From: a virus
Taxonomy: Duplodnaviria > Heunggongvirae > Uroviricota > Caudoviricetes
Strand: one strand, 5' to 3'
DNA: 64,000 bases
IMG/VR virus record: IMGVR_UViG_3300032257_000005
Coordinates: 1 to 64,000 of that record
In this document: positions 1,635 to 56,509 of the stretch, in pieces
Layout: every line of letters starts with the position of its first letter
Position numbering within the stretch: the stretch's first letter is position 1
The notes under the pieces: model-generated
What the model saw: only the letters and a program-made list of their open reading frames with translations
What the model was told of the DNA's origin: nothing
The model's database searches: none
Translations under genes and position numbers: made by a program

Positions 1635-2152
1635 CCTTCCACCTCATTATTACCACCAAAATGTTTAATAAATAACACTTCTATTTCTTCCCACTTTTGT
1701 TTTCTAGAAGCATCAGTATAAGCAGCAGCAGCAGCATTAGCAGCAGCATCATAAGCAGCATAAGCAGCATAAGCAGCATAAGCAGCAGCAGCAAGGGTTA
1801 TTTTATTTATATTACCTAACTTATACTCTCTAATAGCCGCTATGGCTTCGCGCGGAGCAGTGTTGTCATTATCTCTTTCATAGATATGCAAAACGCTTTC
1901 AGCAATATCAGCAAGAAATAAACAATAATCAAGGTAATCAAAACAGCGTAGACACCAGATAGCATCTTTAATGCCGTTAGACTTGAGTATAGTCATTAAG
2001 TCTATTGGCTCATCGTCTGGTTTGGTTTTACCCAGTGATTTTAATAGAGTCTCCCAGCCTGAAGTGCAAGGTAAATGGCTTTTAATATCATTCAGTGTTG
2101 TAATCATTATCATTCCCCTTGTGCATAGAAATAAACCCTCCAAGCTGGACAT
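1631..2152 (-). CDS. hypothetical protein with Ala/Tyr repeat (AAYAAYAAYAAYDAAANAAAAAY). The true start is probably internal, around 2107-2113.
   Basis: ORF. It contains a GCAGCAKMA microsatellite-like repeat at 1721-1800. Its 5' end overlaps ORF 2088..2294. Confidence 0.35.
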   Translation of the reverse strand: MSSLEGLFLCTRGMIMITTLNDIKSHLPCTSGWETLLKSLGKTKPDDEPIDLMTILKSNGIKDAIWCLRCFDYLDYCLFLADIAESVLHIYERDNDNTAPREAIAAIREYKLGNINKITLAAAAYAAYAAYAAYDAAANAAAAAYTDASRKQKWEEIEVLFIKHFGGNNEVEG

Positions 2153-2294
2153 ACTCTGATCGAGTAACCTCCACCCCGTCTACATAAAATTCATCAGGGG
2201 CAATAATACTTTTAGTATGCACATATTTATGGAAACTTTTCCAGAAAGCGACTGATGTTTCCTCCTGCCTGTCTATACTGTCTTTGTTAGTCAT
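2088..2294 (-). CDS. hypothetical protein
   Basis: ORF only. Confidence 0.3.
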   Translation of the reverse strand: MTNKDSIDRQEETSVAFWKSFHKYVHTKSIIAPDEFYVDGVEVTRSEYVQLGGFISMHKGNDNDYNTE

Positions 2295-2476
2295 ATTTTA
2301 CCCCTTGCTTGCTCAGATTTTTTAATTGCTTTTTTTATCTCTGATTCGCTGGGCACATACCCTGTGTTTAACCAATGCAAATAAATTTGATTTACAGGCT
2401 CAGGCGGTGAGCCAACACTATAAAGCCAAATACTCATATAATTTGTTAATAATCTACAACGGGCATGTTTCTTCAT
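2291..2476 (-). CDS. hypothetical protein
   Basis: ORF only; overlapping stop/start with its neighbour. Confidence 0.3.
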   Translation of the reverse strand: MKKHARCRLLTNYMSIWLYSVGSPPEPVNQIYLHWLNTGYVPSESEIKKAIKKSEQARGKI

Positions 2477-3137: not shown

Positions 3138-3640
3138 AACGGAACCCCATCTTTATCAAACCACTTATCCATTTCTTCCACCATATTATTGTAGTTTGTT
3201 CCTTTTACTTGGCTAAAAAGTATCTGCATTCTTGCGCCTCGTTGTGTGCAACATTTTTTAGCTGCCTCAAGCTCTGCCTTAGCTTCGGTTAGTTGTTGTC
3301 TTATACCCTCCACTTCTTCTAAAAAGTCTATATAATCCTCGCCGCTATATAATATCTGATCTTTCTCAAACTCAGCTATTGCTCCCTCAAGCTCACTGTT
3401 ACGTGCTTGTAGGTGTTCAACAGCTTTGAGGAAATTATCATATATGTTAGGTATCATTCTATGGTCACTCTTAAGCTGCTTTACTAAAGAGTCAATATCC
3501 TCCATAGATAGCTTATCAGTGCTCATGAATTTGGTAATATCAAATCTAAATTCCATATCAGTAAGCCTCGGCTTGTCCCTGCTGCCAACATTATCAAAGT
3601 CAGTCGCGTTTACGTGGTTTGGGTCTATGTGTTTAGTCAT
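3134..3640 (-). CDS. hypothetical protein
   Basis: ORF with stop/start overlap to the 2784..3137 gene. It shares the 'ELEAAKK' theme. Confidence 0.35.
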   Translation of the reverse strand: MTKHIDPNHVNATDFDNVGSRDKPRLTDMEFRFDITKFMSTDKLSMEDIDSLVKQLKSDHRMIPNIYDNFLKAVEHLQARNSELEGAIAEFEKDQILYSGEDYIDFLEEVEGIRQQLTEAKAELEAAKKCCTQRGARMQILFSQVKGTNYNNMVEEMDKWFDKDGVPL

Positions 3641-3650
3641 TGTCTGCTCC

Positions 3651-3866
3651 TTATTGGTTGGCTAGTCCGCATTTAATTTTTGTAGTGTCGCCGGGAAATC
3701 TATGCAAGTATTTATACTTCATTTCCCAAACGTAACTATTTCTTAAATTGCACCACCAGACAGATTCGTTACGCTTCCTTAATTTACGAGCGCGTTGCTT
3801 GCAAATTATTCTAACTGTATTCATACAACCTCCCACAATCCCCGCAACGCTTGGGGGTGTTAACAC
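3651..3866 (-). CDS. hypothetical basic protein
   Basis: ORF only. Confidence 0.25.
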   Translation of the reverse strand: MLTPPSVAGIVGGCMNTVRIICKQRARKLRKRNESVWWCNLRNSYVWEMKYKYLHRFPGDTTKIKCGLANQ

Positions 3867-8182: not shown

Positions 8183-9397
8183 TTATCCTTTTACATTTAT
8201 AACTTGCTTTAATGTATGAACGATATCAACTAAATCAGATTGATTTTCCATAACTACATCAATAGATTTATATGCCGATGGTATTTCATCAATTCTTGCT
8301 TCATCTTTTGGACATTCAATACCTTCTGTTTGTGAAATTAAATCATCAACTGTATACATTTTTTTAGCTTGATTTCGCCCTAACTTTCTACCAGCACCAT
8401 GAGAACATGAACAAAATGAATCTTTATTACCTTTACCTTTTACAATAAATGATTTTGCTCCCATACTGCCGGGTATAATTCCCATATCGCCTTCACGCGC
8501 ACGAATAGCACCTTTTCGAGTAACCCAAACATTTGAACCAAAATGGTTTTCTCTTGATATATAATTGTGGTGACAATTGATTGCACTTTTATCTGTTCCG
8601 AAATTTCCAAAATGATTATGTAGAACTTTTAAAACTGCTTGCATCATAACTAAACGACTTTGTTCAGCGAAATCTTGCGCCCATAAAACAGCATTACAAT
8701 AATCATCAAATATTTCTGTATGCTCAACTAAATAAGAAAGGTCTTTATCTGGAAGAAAAGGTGTAATATGATAACGTTCCATTTCACGTTTTGCTTGTTC
8801 AATAAAATATGAACCTATTTTATTTCCAGCACCCCTTGAGCCTGAATGTAACATAACCCAAACATTATCATTTTCATCAAGACATATTTCAATAAAATGA
8901 TTTCCTCCACCAAGCGTACCCATATGCTGCCATGAATTATAACCTTTAGCTTTAGGATGCTTGAGTATTATTTCATCATAACGTGATGCTAAGGGAATCC
9001 ATCTATCTGAAGCATCTACTGAAATTGTATCTTGCCAACCACCTTTATCATTTATACCGCCATTATCAGTACGTCCATGTGGTACAGCCGCTTCAATATC
9101 AGTTCTGATAGTATGTAAATTATCCGGTAATTCATTAGCAGTAATTGTTGTTTTTACTGCAATCATTCCGCAACCAAGATCAACACCAACCGCAGCAGGT
9201 ATAATTGCGCCTTTTGATGGAATAACAGAACCGATAGTTGCACCCATACCCCAATGAACATCAGGCATAGCCGCAATATGTTTATGAATGAAATTCATTT
9301 GCGACATGTTTTCTAATTGCTTCATAGCATTATCATCTATGTCATTAGTCCATATTTTTACTGGCTTACCTTTATTTATAACTTTTTTTATTGGCAT
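8183..9397 (-). CDS. rtcB: RtcB-family RNA 3'-phosphate/2',3'-cyclic-phosphate ligase
   Basis: 404 aa. Typical RtcB segments are present: N-terminal ...AAMPDVHWGMGATIGSV..., ...HSGSRGAGNKIG..., and C-terminal ...CSCSHGAGRKLGR.... Confidence 0.8.
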   Translation of the reverse strand: MPIKKVINKGKPVKIWTNDIDDNAMKQLENMSQMNFIHKHIAAMPDVHWGMGATIGSVIPSKGAIIPAAVGVDLGCGMIAVKTTITANELPDNLHTIRTDIEAAVPHGRTDNGGINDKGGWQDTISVDASDRWIPLASRYDEIILKHPKAKGYNSWQHMGTLGGGNHFIEICLDENDNVWVMLHSGSRGAGNKIGSYFIEQAKREMERYHITPFLPDKDLSYLVEHTEIFDDYCNAVLWAQDFAEQSRLVMMQAVLKVLHNHFGNFGTDKSAINCHHNYISRENHFGSNVWVTRKGAIRAREGDMGIIPGSMGAKSFIVKGKGNKDSFCSCSHGAGRKLGRNQAKKMYTVDDLISQTEGIECPKDEARIDEIPSAYKSIDVVMENQSDLVDIVHTLKQVINVKG

Positions 9398-9409
9398 AAT
9401 AATACCTCT

Positions 9410-9880
9410 TTAATTCCAATTTTCTCTCAATTTTACTTTCTCAAATACAGTTTTATGACCTGCAATATTATTACATTCTTTATGCGCTAATACTTTATTT
9501 TCCATTCTATTACTACCACCGTGTATTAAGCTTAATAAATGTTCTTCAGACATTTCATTGTCATTCATTTCCTGATTACAATAAAAACATTTATTACCAT
9601 CACGCGCTAAAAGTTGTCTTATTTGTTTTGATACATTTCTTTTAGTTGAATTAAATCTACCATCCCATTTTTTAGCTGTTAAAAAACAATCAATAGCTTC
9701 TGTTACAAATGGCGCGCTAACACTAATACCTCTTTTACCTTTATAAATAACACCAGTACCATGTTTACAATTAAACCTTAATAACTCATAAGGATTTGTT
9801 GCAGGTATTATTTCAGCACCTAATTGTTTTAACCATTTTTCAAAATTATTAATTCTATTAGTGCCTAATCGTCTAATCAT
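9410..9880 (-). CDS. HNH endonuclease
   Basis: C-terminal ...CFYCNQEM...EHLLSLIHGGSNRMENKVLAHKECNNIAGHK is an HNH motif with Cys pairs. Confidence 0.6.
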   Translation of the reverse strand: MIRRLGTNRINNFEKWLKQLGAEIIPATNPYELLRFNCKHGTGVIYKGKRGISVSAPFVTEAIDCFLTAKKWDGRFNSTKRNVSKQIRQLLARDGNKCFYCNQEMNDNEMSEEHLLSLIHGGSNRMENKVLAHKECNNIAGHKTVFEKVKLRENWN

Positions 9881-28057: not shown

Positions 28058-28453
28058 ATGAAAAAAGAATTACATTTAACAAAAAAAGATTTTCGTATTG
28101 AATGGTTTTCCGGTCAAGGTGCTGGTGGTCAGCATAGAAATAAACATCAGAACTGTTGTCGTATAATTCATAAAGAAACGGGATTAAAAGCACAAGGCAC
28201 TGAATCTAGAGAAAGACAATCAAATCAAAGAACAGCATTTACCAGACTTGCTAAATTAGTTATTGCTCATTATTACGCTGAAGATGAAAAAATAAGAATA
28301 AAAGCAGATGAAGTAATAAGGAATTATCACGGCGTTAGAAATGAAGTACATGATAAGGCTAGTGGGTTAAAATTATCATATAAAGATATTGTAGAAAACG
28401 GCAATATTGGAAAGATGATTGAAGCAAGACGTAAAATAATGGGATGCGAATAA
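28058..28453 (+). CDS. GGQ-motif peptidyl-tRNA hydrolase, ArfB/PrfH-like (release-factor catalytic domain only)
   Basis: ...FSGQGAGGQHRNKHQNCCRIIHKETGLKAQGTESRERQSNQRTAFTRLAKLV... matches the RF-1/ArfB GGQ-domain consensus (G-x-GGQHVNK...RSQ..NR..A...L). At 131 aa it has no codon-recognition domains. Confidence 0.65.
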   Translation: MKKELHLTKKDFRIEWFSGQGAGGQHRNKHQNCCRIIHKETGLKAQGTESRERQSNQRTAFTRLAKLVIAHYYAEDEKIRIKADEVIRNYHGVRNEVHDKASGLKLSYKDIVENGNIGKMIEARRKIMGCE

Positions 28454-32956: not shown

Positions 32957-33139
32957 ATGAAAATGAGTGAAATAAAATTAAGCTTAGATGATGCAAGGCA
33001 ATTAAAAAAAGATTGCGAGAATGAAATAGATAGAATTATTAAGTCTTTTCAGGAAAGAACTAATATTGAAGTTGAAGAAATTCAGTTTAAGCATAAATCT
33101 GGAACTGGTCGATATACTGAAATTAAAGTAGATTTCTAA
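32957..33139 (+). CDS. hypothetical protein
   Basis: ORF behind the second copy of the duplicated leader. Confidence 0.3.
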   Translation: MKMSEIKLSLDDARQLKKDCENEIDRIIKSFQERTNIEVEEIQFKHKSGTGRYTEIKVDF

Positions 33140-33143
33140 TTGA

Positions 33144-33545
33144 ATGAAGATAGATTGGAAACAAGTATCTAAATGTGATGGATACAGATCTATGAAAGCT
33201 GTTGTAGCTAATGAAGCCAAGCGCAATGCTAAATGGAATCGTAAGCCTAACGAGCGGTATGCTAAAAAATTTAATTGGGCTATCAATAGAGCCAAGCATT
33301 ATGCGTATAAATTTTTAACATTAAATAATCAAATTATTCATAAAAATAGCTTAACGCTTACAATGATTATATTTTTAAATGAATGGGAAGCAAAACGTGA
33401 TTATTGTTTTCTTAATTACTATCAGGATGGTAAGTTTCCTAAATTTCATTCAAACAGTTTAAAGAATAAACGTGGTAAAACAGGTTATTTTAAAATGAAA
33501 GAAAAACCCCGATGGAATACAGTACGTAAAAAACGGGGATATTGA
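33144..33545 (+). CDS. hypothetical basic protein
   Basis: ORF only. Confidence 0.3.
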   Translation: MKIDWKQVSKCDGYRSMKAVVANEAKRNAKWNRKPNERYAKKFNWAINRAKHYAYKFLTLNNQIIHKNSLTLTMIIFLNEWEAKRDYCFLNYYQDGKFPKFHSNSLKNKRGKTGYFKMKEKPRWNTVRKKRGY

Positions 33546-33768
33546 GTCCGTAAGCAAATTGCTTGAAGGGAAAACGTAATAACCAGTAGTGAGTCAAGTC
33601 ATGGCCGTTATTGTAAGTACCAGATTAGAAGGGGAGGTTGCGTTAAACTTGAATAATATGCAAATATCCTTCTTTATGTAGACCGCATAAACCGTTTCTA
33701 TCGTTAATACCTTTGTGGCTAACGAGACATCTGTTCAATTTGCAGGGTAGGTAGAAGCACTAATTATT

Positions 33769-33867
33769 ACGGGAGTGGTGGAAATGGCAGACACGCTATA
33801 AGGTAGTGATGATAAAAGCATAGGCTGGTGCTTCATCGTGCAGGTTTGAATCCTGCCTTCCGTACCA
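33769..33867 (+). tRNA. non-canonical 99-nt tRNA-like gene (acceptor ACGGGAG/CTTCCGT with one G-U pair, T-arm GCAGG-TTTGAAT-CCTGC, discriminator A, CCA encoded); anticodon not assignable
   Basis: Acceptor and T-arm pairings are exact and a 3-bp D-stem (GTG/CAC) is possible. The body is ~10-20 nt too long for any standard class. A 5-bp stem (AAGCA/TGCTT) closes an 8-nt loop TAGGCTGG. Confidence 0.35.
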
Positions 33868-33888
33868 TACAAGCCAAGCATTTATTAA

Positions 33889-33963
33889 GTCGAGTTCATC
33901 TAACGGTTAGGATATCAGGTTTTCAACCTGAGTATGGGAGTTCAATTCTCCCACTCGACACCA
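33889..33963 (+). tRNA. tRNA-Glu (anticodon UUC)
   Basis: Clean cloverleaf: acceptor GTCGAGT/ACTCGAC, anticodon arm TCAGG-TTTTCAA-CCTGA (anticodon TTC), T-arm GGGAG-TTCAATT-CTCCC, discriminator A, CCA encoded. Confidence 0.8.
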
Positions 33964-34257
33964 TATAAGCCAAGCATTTACCTGAAGTCGCACCAGCATC
34001 GAGCTGGCCTAGGCGCGAAGGTAAAGAGGGAAGTTTCTAGAGCTTGATGGAGTTGCGACCATCCAATTTTTTAAAGGTGAAATATGATTATTTGGAACAG
34101 CACTAAGATAAAACAACGTACTTTAACGGTAAGAACTGGTTCAAGTGTTCAAGTTAAGTTTATGATAACAACTTGGTGGTTTTTATTTATTCCAATATTC
34201 AGAAATGAAAAATTAATATCAACTCAATAAAAAGTAATAACATCATGCTATGATAGA

Positions 34258-35694
34258 TTGATGCATGACGAAGAAAGAATAAAACAAGTAATAGCTTTAC
34301 AGGCTGAATTATACAAACGTGATTTCAGAAAATTCTTTTATGAATCATGGAAAATAATAGAACCATCTAATCCCGTTATTCCAAATTGGCATTACGATTG
34401 TATTGCTGAATATCTTGAGGCCGTTACTGCCGGTCAAATCAAACGATTAATTATAAACATCGCACCTCGTACAGGTAAGAGCCGACAAATCACAACGGCT
34501 TGGCCTGTATGGGAATGGATTAAAAAACCTCATAACCGATATCTATTTAGTTCATATTCAGGTGATCTTGCGCGTGATCATTCGCGTGAGCGTAGACTTA
34601 TTATTGAAAGCGATTGGTATCAAGAACGATGGGGTGATGTGTTCAAGATGCAAGGCGATCAGAACGTAGTTACTTACTTTGCTAATGATAAAGGCGGTAG
34701 ACAGCAAGCGCGTGGTACAGGCGGTGGTGGTACAGGTAAGGGTGGATCAAGAGTGATTATTGATGATCCGCATAATGTTAAAGAAGCTAAATCACCTGTA
34801 CAAATTATAAAAGCTGTTCATGATTTTGATGAAAATCTATCAACACGTTTAGATAATCCAAATACAGGCGCGTTTGTATTGGTTATGCAGCGACTTAATA
34901 ACAATGATTTAACAGGTCATATATTAAGAGAAATTGGTGGATATGAAATATTAAAATTACCAACAATAGCTAAATCAAAAACAATCGTTATATTTCCTAT
35001 TAGCAAAAAAGAAAGAATACGTGAAGAAGGTGATATATTATTTCCGTCAAGGCATGGCCCTGAATATCTTGCAGAACAAAAACGATCATTAGGAACGGCA
35101 GGTTTTGAAGCACAACATGAACAAGAACCTTTAATTGTTGGTGGTGATCGAATTAAACTAGATTGGTTTGATCGTTATGCAGTAAGACCTCAAAAATGGT
35201 TTAGATGTATTCAGTCATGGGATACGGGTTTAAAGCCTAAAGACACAGCCGCACCAAGCGTATGCTTAACGTTTATTCAAGATGCTAAAGATCATCCGTG
35301 GAAGATAGTTGATGTATATAGGGAAAAAGTTGGTTATCCTAAATTACGTAAAGCGGTAATAGATCTACATACAAAATGGAATCCTGAAGCAATATTAATA
35401 GAAAACAAAGCGAGTGGTATACAGTTAGTGCAAGAATTAAAAGGTAATCTACCTGTTATACCGATTGAACCTGAATCTGATAAGCAAACAAGAATGGAAA
35501 CGCAATCACCGCATGTTGAATCAGGTCAACTATCATTGCCTGATGAAGCTAAATGGTTAGGTGATTTTGAAACTGAAATTATGCAATTTCCAAACTGCGA
35601 TACATGGGATCAGATAGATACATTAAGCCAATTCTTAAAATACATATTTACTAAAAAGAAAAAAATAGAGCAAAGGAAGTTGTCAGGGCTTTAA
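34258..35694 (+). CDS. terL: terminase large subunit
   Basis: Walker-A-like ...INIAPRTGKSRQ.... 478 aa. Acidic nuclease-domain residues lie in the C-terminal half. It is followed by the portal gene. Confidence 0.7.
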   Translation: MMHDEERIKQVIALQAELYKRDFRKFFYESWKIIEPSNPVIPNWHYDCIAEYLEAVTAGQIKRLIINIAPRTGKSRQITTAWPVWEWIKKPHNRYLFSSYSGDLARDHSRERRLIIESDWYQERWGDVFKMQGDQNVVTYFANDKGGRQQARGTGGGGTGKGGSRVIIDDPHNVKEAKSPVQIIKAVHDFDENLSTRLDNPNTGAFVLVMQRLNNNDLTGHILREIGGYEILKLPTIAKSKTIVIFPISKKERIREEGDILFPSRHGPEYLAEQKRSLGTAGFEAQHEQEPLIVGGDRIKLDWFDRYAVRPQKWFRCIQSWDTGLKPKDTAAPSVCLTFIQDAKDHPWKIVDVYREKVGYPKLRKAVIDLHTKWNPEAILIENKASGIQLVQELKGNLPVIPIEPESDKQTRMETQSPHVESGQLSLPDEAKWLGDFETEIMQFPNCDTWDQIDTLSQFLKYIFTKKKKIEQRKLSGL

Positions 35695-53701: not shown

Positions 53702-56509
53702 ATGCCTCGTTATTTTAACGGATTAAACGAATACTTAACTGCTGCTGCATTATCTGCACATCAGATAACAGGTGATGTTTCTATTGCTGTTACATTTAAT
53801 CCAGATACTTTACCGGCAAGTAATGCCGCAGAATGGGCTGTATTTCAATCTATAGGTGGAGAAACAACAGCTACTAATGCTCTTTATGGTGTTGGAATAA
53901 GAAATAATAGTGGAACATCATATTTTTCATTTTTTCATGAAAGTGGATCAGGAGTGAATCATAGGGTTGATTCAAATATTACCGTTAGTGCGGATACTGA
54001 ATATAAAATTATTGTTATACGTAATACATCAGCATTAACATATCAACTTATTGTTAACGGAACTGATCATGGTACTTTTTCATACACAACAAATCCTTCA
54101 GGAGGAAGTAGTACAAGATTAAGAATAGGTTCTGCATACAGTGGAGGTACTTCTGCTGCTCAATGGTTTAATGGTACTATAAGTGAGGTAGGTATATGGG
54201 ATGCAGGAATAAGTACCGCTGAAGCTATTTCATATACGGATGGATCGTATGAAGTTAAAAATATTGATACTTCTAATCTTGTTAGTCATTATAGAATAAC
54301 AGGTGGTATATCACCGGAACCTGATACCTTTGGATCAGTTGGAAGTTTAGTTATAAGTGGTACGCCAAATTCACCAGTTATAACAACACAAACTAGTATA
54401 ACGCCAAACTTAACTAATAATTCAAAACAAGGTTATGCTAGAAGTGGTGTTTTTAATATTATAAGTGATAATGAATCTTTATATATAAGAGATTCTCAAT
54501 GGTCTGTTATCGCTTCTGATACAGCCGTACTATCTGCTTTAACCAGTGTAACTAATCATCTTGGTGATATAGACGTTTATAACGGAATGATCTATACGGT
54601 AGCTAATAGATTTTCTACTTGTGCTGATAAAACAAATCATCAAATAGCAATTTATAACGCTTCAACTTTAGCATTAACTTCATCAAGAAGTATATCCGCA
54701 TCAGATCATACCGCCGCAGCCGCGATAGCGATAAACCATAGAGCTAATGAAATATATCTAGGATCTTTTTGTGATGGTGCGAATATAGAGATCCATGATT
54801 TAGATACATTAGCCTATTCAAGTTCATTAACACTTAGTTATAACGTTTCAAGCATTCAAGGTATCGCATATAAGAATGGTTATATTTATGCAATGGGTAC
54901 GGATGGAGATCTTTTTCAAATAAGACGAAGTGATGGAGATATAATTTGGCATGAGAATATGGGCGGTGGTTATCCTGAATATGAAGGTATTGATTTTTCA
55001 GGTGATGAATTTAGATACTTAGTTCATGCTTCATCAATTGTATATAACATACTGTTTATAACAGGTGTTCCAGTTGGTAATATTGATTTTAATGTAACTG
55101 GATCAAAGCATTTACATAAAGCAGATAGTACAAATGTATCGGTAATAACAGATTCAACTATTAACTTAGATGTACTTGATTCAAAACACATTCATAAATC
55201 AGATATATTTAACATAGTACAAACATATAATTTAAATATATTAGATTCTAAGCACTCACATAAAGCAGATAAAACTAATTTAAGTTTAACTGTTGATTTA
55301 GATACAAAAGACTCAAAACATACTCACAAGTCTGATAAAGTTAATTTAAATCAAACTCATGATTTAAATACACTAGATAGTAAGCATATTAATAAATCTG
55401 ATAATTTAATAATTGATCAAATACATAATTTAAACGCATTAGATAGCAAACACTTACACAAATCTGATAAGACTAATTTAGATCAAACTAATAACTTAAT
55501 TATATTTGATTCTAAACACATTCATAAATCTGATAAATCTAATTTAGATCAAACGCATTATTTAAATATTATTGATAGTAAACATCTGCATAAATCAGAT
55601 GAAACTTTATTCAATTTAACAATAACGCTTAATACATTAGATTCAAAACATATTCATAAATCTGAAAATAATGCTGTTGATCAAACTCATAATATCAATG
55701 TATTAGATAGTAAGCATTTACATAAATCAGATATTGCTGGATTAGAAGTTACAGAAGGTCTTGATGTACGAGATTCAAAACATCTTCATAAATCTGATAA
55801 AACTAACTTAGATCAAATACATGATTTAGGTGTTTTAGATAATACGCATAATCATACATCAGAACAAACTTCATTTAATTTAACTGTTGAATTAAATACT
55901 AAAGATTCTAAGCATATTCATAAATCTGATAATACTGCTATTGATCAGATACATAATTTAAATGCTTTAGATAGTAAACATACACATACTTCTGATAATG
56001 CTGCACTTGAATCAACAGTAGGATTACAAGTAAATGATTCTAAGCATCTACATAAATCGGATAAAACTAATTTAGATCAAGTTCATAATTTATCAGTTAA
56101 AAGTACAAAACATATTCATAAATCTGAAAATGTTGTAATACAATCTACATTAGAACTTGATGTACATGATAATAAGCATTTACATAAATCTGAAAATGCA
56201 GGTTTAATACAAACATTAACGTTATCAATTAAGAGTGCAAAACATATTCATAAGTCAGATAATGCTCAGGTAAATCAAACTAATATATTAAGAGCATTAG
56301 ACGGAAAACATTTGCATAAGTCTGATAAAGCTAATATTGTACAGAAGCATATATTAAAACCGAAAGATGCTAAACATTTACACAAGTCTGATTTCATTGA
56401 TTGGACACCAGCCGTTCCGTATGTTTCTTCACCAGAACGTACTATACTAGGAAAATATGAGGATAGAACTATATACTCTAAATATGTATCTAGGGTAATA
56501 CAATCATAA
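53702..56509 (+). CDS. tail fibre/spike-like protein (935 aa) with an N-terminal lectin/LamG-like jelly-roll region and ~19 tandem 22-aa His/Lys-rich repeats
   Basis: N-terminus ...VSIAVTFNP...EWAVFQSIGG...LRIGSAYSGG...WFNGTISEVGIWD... is LamG-like. The repeat unit is LDSKH(L/I)HKSDKTNLDQ(T/I)HNLN(A/I). Confidence 0.5.
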   Translation: MPRYFNGLNEYLTAAALSAHQITGDVSIAVTFNPDTLPASNAAEWAVFQSIGGETTATNALYGVGIRNNSGTSYFSFFHESGSGVNHRVDSNITVSADTEYKIIVIRNTSALTYQLIVNGTDHGTFSYTTNPSGGSSTRLRIGSAYSGGTSAAQWFNGTISEVGIWDAGISTAEAISYTDGSYEVKNIDTSNLVSHYRITGGISPEPDTFGSVGSLVISGTPNSPVITTQTSITPNLTNNSKQGYARSGVFNIISDNESLYIRDSQWSVIASDTAVLSALTSVTNHLGDIDVYNGMIYTVANRFSTCADKTNHQIAIYNASTLALTSSRSISASDHTAAAAIAINHRANEIYLGSFCDGANIEIHDLDTLAYSSSLTLSYNVSSIQGIAYKNGYIYAMGTDGDLFQIRRSDGDIIWHENMGGGYPEYEGIDFSGDEFRYLVHASSIVYNILFITGVPVGNIDFNVTGSKHLHKADSTNVSVITDSTINLDVLDSKHIHKSDIFNIVQTYNLNILDSKHSHKADKTNLSLTVDLDTKDSKHTHKSDKVNLNQTHDLNTLDSKHINKSDNLIIDQIHNLNALDSKHLHKSDKTNLDQTNNLIIFDSKHIHKSDKSNLDQTHYLNIIDSKHLHKSDETLFNLTITLNTLDSKHIHKSENNAVDQTHNINVLDSKHLHKSDIAGLEVTEGLDVRDSKHLHKSDKTNLDQIHDLGVLDNTHNHTSEQTSFNLTVELNTKDSKHIHKSDNTAIDQIHNLNALDSKHTHTSDNAALESTVGLQVNDSKHLHKSDKTNLDQVHNLSVKSTKHIHKSENVVIQSTLELDVHDNKHLHKSENAGLIQTLTLSIKSAKHIHKSDNAQVNQTNILRALDGKHLHKSDKANIVQKHILKPKDAKHLHKSDFIDWTPAVPYVSSPERTILGKYEDRTIYSKYVSRVIQS
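55090..56400 (+). repeat. 66-bp tandem coding repeat array (~19-20 units, DSKHxHKSDK...)
   Basis: Directly visible periodicity. Confidence 0.85.

Follow-up and report, generated by a model that had tools for sequence, protein, structure and literature searches.

A leucine-type tRNA-like gene without a usable anticodon arm belongs to a recurrent class of phage elements

The DNA analysed here (the window, 64,000 nucleotides) comes from a phage (Caudoviricetes) recorded in IMG/VR as IMGVR_UViG_3300032257_000005, of which it covers positions 1 to 64,000; it is part of an 86-kb contig of the ENA metagenome assembly ERZ27251083. It carries an RNA locus in which a conserved RNA of about 215 nt, a 99-nt tRNA-like gene (33769..33867) and a canonical tRNA-Glu gene follow one another. 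The 99-nt gene has the acceptor stem, D arm and T arm of a leucine tRNA, lacks a usable anticodon arm, and is one of a recurrent class of phage elements built in the same way. On balance, we think it probable that it encodes a non-decoding tRNA mimic on a class II leucine-type scaffold, as a member of a large, virus-enriched class.

Results

A leucine-type scaffold with no usable anticodon arm

An initial annotation, made from the letters of the window alone, had described 33769..33867 as a tRNA-like gene with an over-long middle, in a tRNA locus holding one canonical tRNA-Glu, and had listed an acceptor stem with one G-U pair, a T arm, a discriminator and a CCA. All of these were found again, and the gene is composed as follows.

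33769..33867, plus strand: 99-nt tRNA-like gene on a leucine-type (class II) scaffold ('tRNA-???' in ARAGORN; aligned with tRNA-Leu)
33769..33775, plus strand: acceptor stem, 5′ strand, followed by U8 and G9
33778..33794, plus strand: D arm
33795..33807, plus strand: 13-nt linker GCTATAAGGTAGT in place of the 17-nt anticodon arm (minimum free energy fold)
33808..33837, plus strand: 30-nt bulged hairpin, GATGA-TAAA-AGCAT ... GTGCT-TCATC, at the variable-arm position (minimum free energy fold)
33840..33856, plus strand: T arm
33857..33863, plus strand: acceptor stem, 3′ strand
33864, plus strand: A73
33865..33867, plus strand: CCA

The acceptor stem (ACGGGAG/CTTCCGT) has 7 bp including the G-U, and the T arm (GCAGG-TTTGAAT-CCTGC) has a 5-bp stem and a 7-nt loop. 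A73, the encoded CCA, U8, A14, A15, G18 G19, U48 and U55 are all present, and the D arm, TGGTGGAAATGGCAGACAC, is the hallmark of class II tRNA-Leu. The identity set of bacterial leucyl-tRNA synthetase (LeuRS) comprises A73, U8-A14, A15-U48, G18-U55, G19-C56 and a correctly oriented variable arm (PMC2377443). Every position of this set is found in the 99-nt gene except C56, and the hairpin at the variable-arm position is much over tRNA-Leu length.

The gene was aligned with the tRNA-Leu of T4 and two tRNA-Leu(TAA) genes from IMG/VR. The acceptor, D and T parts aligned, the middle did not, and no anticodon loop of the CTTAAAA type was found in the 99-nt gene. Shared with class II tRNA-Leu (e.g. 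that of T4) are the 7-bp acceptor, A73, U8, U48, the 5-bp T arm, a D arm of the form TGG(Y)GGAA..GG.AGAC(R)C and a hairpin placed 2 nt before the T stem. Unlike tRNA-Leu, the gene has no 5-bp/7-nt anticodon arm and no Leu anticodon, its hairpin is 30 nt long with a 4-nt bulge, and position 56 is a U. The distance from D arm to T arm is 45 nt, compared with about 33-37 nt in the three aligned tRNA-Leu genes; for tRNA-Leu in general we estimate this span at roughly 31-39 nt, made up of a 17-nt anticodon arm, position 26 and a 13-21-nt variable region.

In the minimum free energy fold, the acceptor, D and T helices form together with two non-tRNA hairpins. The one in the linker is marginal: at best, a 3-nt loop is closed by 5 bp, of which two are G-U. 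The other is the bulged hairpin, after which G and U48 (33838..33839) lead into the T stem. Its AAGCA/TGCTT helix, enclosing TAGGCTGG, had been singled out in the initial annotation as closing an apparent 8-nt loop; the helix exists, but it occupies the variable-arm position, in a hairpin that closes 2 nt before the T stem, and is not an anticodon arm. The fold of the whole molecule is unexceptional (z=-1.07), and the case for this gene rests on its tRNA-specific features and on its relatives, not on thermodynamics.

No register of the middle gives a 5-bp stem and a 7-nt loop with U33. Part of the refuting condition set in the initial annotation was that prediction tools call no tRNA here, and on this the programs are divided: ARAGORN calls its 'tRNA-???', while the Rfam tRNA model RF00005 (gathering cut-off 29 bits) gives no match to 33769..33867 even at E<=10 in a 901-nt search. 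Among the traits of a canonical tRNA, the 7-bp acceptor, the discriminator, the T stem and loop and G18 G19 are there; the RF00005 score and a 5-bp/7-nt anticodon arm with U33 and a purine at position 37 are not. The upper half and the core of the gene have the shape of a tRNA, and decoding is not possible: the 99-nt RNA cannot read codons because the anticodon arm is missing.

The best model of ARAGORN places a 4-base anticodon (tagt) in an 8-nt loop, GGTAGTGA, which is a different loop from the one noted in the initial annotation. If this model were right, the RNA would be a working decoder with GGUAGUGA as its anticodon loop, reading a quadruplet (anticodon UAGU) or CUN/UAG-related codons as a frameshift suppressor or recoding tRNA. 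Natural tRNAs with 8-nt loops do exist, such as yeast mitochondrial tRNA-Thr1, whose enlarged 8-nt anticodon loop reads CUN (PMC4267643). We nevertheless consider a decoder very unlikely. The stem of the model (33797..33801 with 33810..33814) consists of four A-U pairs and an A.G mismatch, G stands at the U33 position, two nucleotides instead of one follow the D stem, 6 unpaired nt precede the T stem, and the 25 nt after the anticodon stem are non-canonical. The Rfam tRNA model ignores the gene, as said above, and the minimum free energy fold favours another pairing. Read in the standard code, the genes for the large terminase (TerL) and other late proteins are intact and show no visible need for recoding, and the class described below has no conserved loop. 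The frameshift-suppressor option of the initial annotation is therefore a weak reading, with an 8-nt loop that has no U33 on a mismatched stem.

An intron, which had also been suggested, fares no better. The gene would then specify a pre-tRNA whose unconventional intron is excised by a nuclease and whose halves are rejoined by the RtcB of the phage. The phage does encode RtcB, the ligase of archaeal and eukaryal tRNA splicing, and the element exceeds a class II tRNA in length by about 12-25 nt. Against this, the intron modes of ARAGORN (-i and -i0,200) found no solution and returned the same intron-less 'tRNA-???', no bulge-helix-bulge leaves a 7-nt loop with U33, no splicing endonuclease was seen among about 40 open reading frames (ORFs) scanned, the RtcB gene lies 24 kb away, and the class has no conserved exon sequence flanking its variable part. 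We hold this explanation to be extremely unlikely. A remnant of the attP site of an integrase was likewise considered and discarded, both tRNA halves being in register and no integrase being nearby.

A recurrent class of elements, enriched in viruses

The exact 19-mer of the window T arm is present in 11 IMG/VR contigs, mostly within ordinary phage tRNA-Arg genes. In three of these contigs (L087, L084 and L091), a Leu-type D arm is connected to the same T arm by an aberrant middle of 48-101 nt. A search of IMG/VR for GCTAACGAGA..CAGGGTAGGTAG yielded 0 matches, the pattern being too strict. The scaffold pattern GGAA-N3-8-AGACRC-N40-70-GGTTYRAATCC, run on the same database, matched at least 120 loci, corresponding to at least 110 distinct elements. 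It was derived from the window element, whose own match (48-nt middle, 7/7 acceptor pairs) is therefore true by construction.

The pairing of positions that lie outside the pattern indicates that the matches are real genes. All three unselected outer T-stem pairs were formed in 100 of the 110 distinct matches listed, compared with 2 in a control with displaced partners, and at least 6 of the 7 acceptor pairs in 102 of them, compared with 13; that is, the unselected stems are paired in about 91-93% of the elements listed. U48 (96 of 101 extracted elements) and A73 (82/101), which are not part of the search pattern, are also kept, as is U8 (100/101), and CCA is encoded in only 13 of the 101. The middles are hypervariable and share no conserved loop: 43 elements have the acceptor AGTCAGG/CCTGACT in common, and their middles, 39-67 nt long, are unrelated. 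In 42 of 96 elements (44%, versus 10% of shuffles), and in the window element too, exactly 2 nt separate the last helix of the middle from the T stem, a spacing that the search pattern did not select either.

Most of these genes escape ARAGORN, which called 18 of the 101 extracted elements, only 5 of them as tRNA-Leu, and left 83 uncalled. The Rfam tRNA model gave 41-45 bits to some and missed others. About half belong to tRNA arrays; for the other half, no further tRNA-like gene lies in the locus examined. When the same pattern was run on 185,579 cellular genomes, an acceptor stem was found in only 25 of the 125 matches listed, several of which are of the viral AGTCAGG/AGTCCTG type and lie on contigs of metagenome-assembled genomes. 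Since so few cellular matches have an acceptor stem, we conclude that the class is enriched in viruses. No description of anticodon-arm-less Leu-type phage tRNA-like genes was found in the literature searched, the coverage of which was incomplete, so that this is absence of evidence only.

Such genes are not confined to Leu-type scaffolds. In L091 (IMGVR_UViG_3300033151_000623), four tRNA-like elements follow one another at about 3310..3860 on the minus strand, with acceptor and T arms, expanded non-canonical middles and D arms of different types; ARAGORN in default mode calls none of the four.

This recurrence bears on whether the window gene is a decaying tRNA-Leu pseudogene, which would have lost its anticodon arm by deletion, grown its variable arm and persisted as a functionless passenger of tRNA-Glu. 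Its middle has no conserved counterpart, its fold is no better than ordinary, its T loop carries U56, and its only other copy is identical and gives no direct sign of constraint. However, the acceptor stem, A73, CCA, U8, A14, G18 G19, U48 and T stem are intact, and the loss is confined to the anticodon arm. Some 100 independent viral elements, their stems perfect, repeat this selective pattern, which random decay would not yield, and many elements of the class have no other tRNA-like gene on their contig. A pseudogene is thus quite unlikely.

Some of the middles contain words related to translation starts. The element of L087 (2263..2355, minus strand, 93 nt) has in its middle an 8-bp stem with a 9-nt loop, ACCUCCUCC, that resembles the anti-Shine-Dalgarno end of 16S rRNA, and element 4 of L091 has CCCUCC in a loop. 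Over all class middles, Shine-Dalgarno-like words are not enriched, and anti-Shine-Dalgarno-like 5-mers show a marginal excess (17 versus 10.0 +/- 2.8 in shuffles, p~0.016). In the window element, 33801..33824 looks like a mini translation start (UAAGG, a 5-nt spacer, then AUG AUA AAA GCA UAG), and L084 has AUG AUG AAU GGC UGG AAC CCU UCC CCG UGA at the corresponding place. As the family-wide Shine-Dalgarno tests are negative, this resemblance is probably due to chance.

Identical scaffolds with hypervariable middles over dozens of contigs are also what one would see for a module under diversifying selection. The tRNA scaffold might be a mere vehicle, which stabilises and releases an active variable hairpin and linker (regulatory, aptamer-like or anti-defence), or which serves as RNase P/Z punctuation between the 215-nt RNA and tRNA-Glu. 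The clusters of ORFs flanking elements of the class are all on the strand of the element, and in the window the element begins 6-10 nt past the end of the 215-nt RNA, so that an RNase P cut would set the 3′ end of that RNA. Yet no target is evident: as said, the middles are not enriched in Shine-Dalgarno-like words and have only a marginal excess of anti-Shine-Dalgarno-like 5-mers, and the only nearby complementarity, 8 bp with the third hairpin of the locus, is at chance level. Punctuation, for its part, would not need A73, U48 and a class II D arm. We regard a vehicle as unlikely.

Three IMG/VR contigs have a phage tmRNA gene in the same orientation as a Leu-type element and at a distance of about 60-180 nt from it (L200 5468..5866, L222 9493..9958, L226 2992..3315). 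This adjacency would suit a miniature tmRNA-like rescue RNA, charged with leucine and entering stalled ribosomes without codon recognition. tmRNA has the same topology, with a variable insert for an anticodon arm and a synthetase that ignores the anticodon, and the window phage also has a stand-alone GGQ protein and RtcB. Still, a rescue RNA of this kind appears highly improbable: neither ARAGORN in tmRNA mode (-m) nor the Rfam tmRNA families match the window element, its pair 3:70 is G-C and not G3:U70, the class middles show no enrichment of stops in all three frames (12 observed versus 8.4 +/- 2.6), no SmpB-like partner was seen, and a tmRNA stands beside the element in only those 3 of the 120 loci listed.

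The tRNA-Glu gene, the spacers and the end of the locus

Downstream of the 99-nt gene, the locus contains the following features.

33868..33888, plus strand: spacer copy 1, TACAAGCCAAGCATTTATTAA, between the CCA of the tRNA-like gene and tRNA-Glu
33889..33963, plus strand: canonical tRNA-Glu(UUC) with encoded CCA (ARAGORN; Rfam RF00005, 62.8 bits, E=3e-11)
33964..33986, plus strand: spacer copy 2, TATAAGCCAAGCATTTACCTGAA, 3′ of tRNA-Glu
33987..34059, plus strand: long imperfect hairpin, GTCGCA...TGCGAC (fold -27.7 kcal/mol, z=-1.86, 8 of 200 shuffles as good)
34046..34072, plus strand: terminator-like hairpin GATGG-AGTTGCGA-CCATC (34046..34063), then CAATTTTTT, with the T run reaching 34072 (terminator search)

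The clean fold claimed for tRNA-Glu(UUC) is confirmed by the ARAGORN call, the Rfam score and a z of -4.1, and the gene is 85-91% identical to the tRNA-Glu of T4-like and T5-like phages. The near-identical spacers reported after both genes are real as well: 16 of their 17 first bases are identical, and both continue into AAGTCG. The segment that follows the second spacer (GTCGCAC...), noted earlier as structured, forms the long hairpin at 33987..34059. It is not tRNA-like, having neither T arm nor CCA, and neither ARAGORN nor Rfam calls it. The terminator-like hairpin overlaps its 3′ side; with a T6 run, this is the only terminator-like site in 33100..34400 and probably marks where the RNA operon ends.

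None of the loci examined has a relative of the spacer repeat or of the third hairpin. A 15-nt match in L239 lies in an ordinary-looking coding stretch with no tRNA features, and was discarded as chance. Within the window, GCTGGTGC (33824..33831, in the hairpin of the tRNA-like gene) is perfectly complementary over 8 bp to GCACCAGC (33990..33997, at the start of the third hairpin), which at this distance is about what chance would give.

A conserved pseudoknotted RNA and a small basic protein upstream

The other side of the 99-nt gene is occupied by two features.

33144..33545, plus strand: small basic protein of 133 aa, PHROG phrog_24749
33547..33763, plus strand: conserved structured non-coding RNA of about 215 nt (nhmmer profile, E=6e-58)

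The ~220 nt upstream of the 99-nt gene had been proposed as a place for further RNAs, and this was correct: 33546..33768 has no ORF of at least 60 aa and holds a structured RNA. It came to light through a blastn match to 27 Vibrio phages, from which the whole stretch and the preceding ORF proved to be conserved. The RNA is closed by helix P1 (33554..33561 with 33736..33743), which contains four internal helices, and its 3′ tail (33744..33758) pairs with 33694..33702 and 33708..33713, across the closing helix, to make a pseudoknot. The pseudoknot helix has 6-10 bp and a different sequence in each of 9 lineages. In the RNAalifold consensus of 10 distinct sequences, 26 of the 37 pairs have compensatory changes, 95.1% of cells are paired (33-44% with slid partners), and the covariation score is 0.632 compared with at most 0.127; none of 500 shuffles reached any of these measures. 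Long unpaired motifs (GAAGGGAAAA, AAGUACC, UUAAACUUAAAUAAU and GCUAACGUGA) are nearly invariant. Rfam 15 has no match to the RNA at E<=10 in the window, and only chance-level ones to its Vibrio phage counterpart. We conclude that this is a new structured RNA family, pseudoknotted, with strong covariation, and absent from Rfam.

The basic protein is predicted with confidence to have an N-terminal domain of three helices, which is conserved, and a basic tail that is disordered; it matches no fold or family. Each of its 15 homologues is followed by a 250-400-nt gap, and the 215-nt RNA follows in every relative. Conversely, the nhmmer profile finds the RNA only beside its protein, and the RNA is not linked to the Leu-like class. 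What comes next varies: tRNAs in the window, an AAA ATPase in L184, small ORFs elsewhere, and in L173 a gene that we take to be thymidylate-synthase-like from reading its N-terminal sequence. Since the downstream genes differ between lineages, the unit consists of the protein and the RNA; its simplest interpretation is a ribonucleoprotein, or else an RNA that acts on the message carrying it.

The RNA is present in cultured phages, namely Alteromonas vB_AmaP_AD45-P1 and Vibrio D456, D491 and K479. Its position in AD45-P1 is about NC_021532:51266..51480, 3′ of gp057 (YP_008126028.1). In the D456 record (OZ195695.1, about 54,940..55,360, minus strand; L001 1960..2385), the homologue of the basic protein is unannotated, and five short reverse-strand 'hypothetical proteins', probably spurious, are annotated over homologue and RNA. 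A further 170-190 nt of non-coding DNA follows the RNA in AD45-P1 (L311 about 2210..2394) and in L312/L313 (about 2140..2335); the AD45-P1 stretch repeats 5′ motifs of the RNA (CCGTAAGCC, CAAGTAC and GGAAGGAAAAGG), as though the RNA were there a second time in partial or rearranged form.

In four lineages, the protein-RNA module has a tRNA or tRNA-like gene no more than 300 nt away, which is suggestive only. In L184, a 96-nt tRNA-like gene (2369..2464) stands 36 nt upstream of the basic-protein homologue, making this a second lineage with an odd tRNA-like gene adjoining the module. The D arm of this gene, GTAGCTCAATTGGTAGAGC, is of class I, and its CTATT/AATAG stem carries a loop of 26 nt. In L312 (1194..1267) and L313 (1203..1276), i.e. 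Vibrio D491 and K479, a single tRNA-Lys(UUU) is found about 230 nt upstream; tRNA-Lys(UUU), like tRNA-Glu(UUC), belongs to the group typically targeted by anticodon nucleases.

Genomic setting

The genome is AT-rich (~32% GC). A second sample (ENA ERZ27251093) carries an identical copy of the RNA locus, and this is the sole other contig that has it. ARAGORN, run on the 64 kb, finds exactly two genes, tRNA-Glu(ttc) at 33889..33963 and 'tRNA-???' at 33769..33867. The RNA cluster is placed between the 133-aa ORF (33144..33545) and a 48-aa ORF followed by the TerL gene (34258..35694). The best relatives of TerL are 36.7% identical in INPHARED, 43% in IMG/VR and 46% in JGI metagenomes, none exceeding 46%, and a tRNA upstream of TerL was seen in 0 of 60 IMG/VR relatives. 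The 48-aa ORF (34084..34230, plus strand), between the terminator-like site and the terminase gene, has a good ribosome-binding site, AAAGGTGAAATATG, and matches no family. Near TerL, no gene was recognisable as that of a small terminase. Two genes related to RNA repair and translation, and one neighbour, lie elsewhere in the window.

8183..9397, minus strand: RtcB RNA ligase (Pfam PF01139, 7e-122)
9410..9880, minus strand: HNH endonuclease gene, directly beside RtcB
28058..28453, plus strand: stand-alone 131-aa release-factor GGQ-domain protein (PF00472, 1.6e-15; motif GQGAGGQHRNK)

RtcB has a sub-threshold match to the PrfH-associated 'release_rtcB' model, and the GGQ-domain protein matches the PrfH and ArfB models weakly. 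Together they recall the RtcB2-PrfH ribosome-rescue pair.

Discussion

The features recognised by RNase P, by the enzymes that process 3′ ends and by LeuRS are kept in the element, and we therefore propose a processed, probably leucylated mimic. The 99-nt RNA would be co-transcribed with the upstream protein gene, the 215-nt RNA and tRNA-Glu, up to the terminator at 34046..34072. RNase P and 3′ trimming would probably release it as they do a tRNA, and the repeated spacers may be the 3′ processing context. Host LeuRS would then probably leucylate it, the anticodon arm not being needed: deleting the whole anticodon stem-loop costs only 2.5-fold in affinity, and the arm is dispensable for charging (PMC2377443). 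The mimic might act on proteins that recognise the acceptor or elbow of tRNA, or on the ribosome outside normal decoding; candidate targets are LeuRS itself, aminoacyl-tRNA-dependent transferases and tRNA-targeting defence enzymes. The decoy that the initial annotation had listed among its options is still a live one.

Several points weigh against such a mimic. Its T loop, TTTGAAT, puts U at position 56 and gives G19-U56 in place of G19-C56, a pair reported to be critical for LeuRS, and lengthening the variable arm lowered charging (PMC2377443); the variable-arm-like hairpin here is longer than in any tRNA-Leu. The sole other copy of the locus being identical, selection on the window's element is not measurable. 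The 'leucine type' of the class is partly imposed by the search pattern, and odd tRNA-like genes with other D arms exist (L091, L184). No gene family recurs beside the Leu-like elements in more than 5 of about 80 loci, so that no partner is indicated. Finally, stoichiometric decoys counter catalytic toxins poorly.

The 99-nt mimic is a variation on a known theme, that of phage tRNA-like stable RNAs, and its closest precedent is the pair rnaC/rnaD of T4, which are processed by RNase P. These T4 RNAs (species 1 and species 2) are also small stable RNAs, of unknown function, encoded next to canonical tRNAs in a phage tRNA cluster (NC_000866), and rnaC ends in a T-arm-like CCGGG-TTCGAAT-CCCGG. They differ from the 99-nt gene in having no sequence similarity to it, in their length (139 and 119 nt) and in the absence of a leucine-type D arm. 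The tRNA-like domain of tmRNA resembles the gene in its acceptor and T arm, its non-tRNA insert for an anticodon arm and its synthetase, which ignores the anticodon; the G3:U70 alanine specificity, degenerate D arm, pseudoknots, tag ORF and need for SmpB that characterise tmRNA have no counterpart here.

In YrlA RNA, the ends form a Ro-binding stem and not an acceptor stem. Y RNAs of this type do contain a tRNA-like module of D, T and acceptor parts in a non-decoding RNA, and they often lie in rsr-rtcBA operons (PMC4201824, PMC7790460); the window genome also has RtcB. No Ro/TROVE protein was found among the about 40 ORFs scanned, and no Rfam Y RNA in the window. Counter-defence is also the role ascribed to phage tRNAs whose altered anticodon loops let them escape the anticodon nucleases of the host (PMC10264068). 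Their anticodon arm still works and differs by point changes, whereas the 99-nt gene has none. In the light of such cases, the lone tRNA-Glu(UUC), together with RtcB, likely serves counter-defence rather than codon supply.

The genomic context, with its single tRNA-Glu(UUC), RtcB and GGQ protein, fits a contest over translation. A wider picture can be drawn from it, which we offer tentatively and hold to be rather doubtful: phages would widely encode chargeable, non-decoding tRNA-Leu mimics in a translation arms race, acting in this genome together with those three genes, and, separately, the 215-nt RNA and its basic protein would make up a new ribonucleoprotein or ribozyme. In such an arms race, the mimics might sequester or divert host immunity directed at tRNAs, supply a reaction that depends on leucine-tRNA, or gain access to damaged ribosomes independently of a codon.

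RtcB and a GGQ protein in one genome provide a compact case for phage repair or bypass of damage to the translation machinery. The 215-nt RNA is tied to one small protein and present in cultured Alteromonas and Vibrio phages, which makes experiments possible now. As to the 99-nt gene, annotation pipelines skip or mislabel genes of its kind at a time when phage tRNA genes are being re-read as counter-defence. If it is true that the class keeps the parts needed for LeuRS and for processing and drops the decoding arm, then phages would use the tRNA shape beyond decoding.

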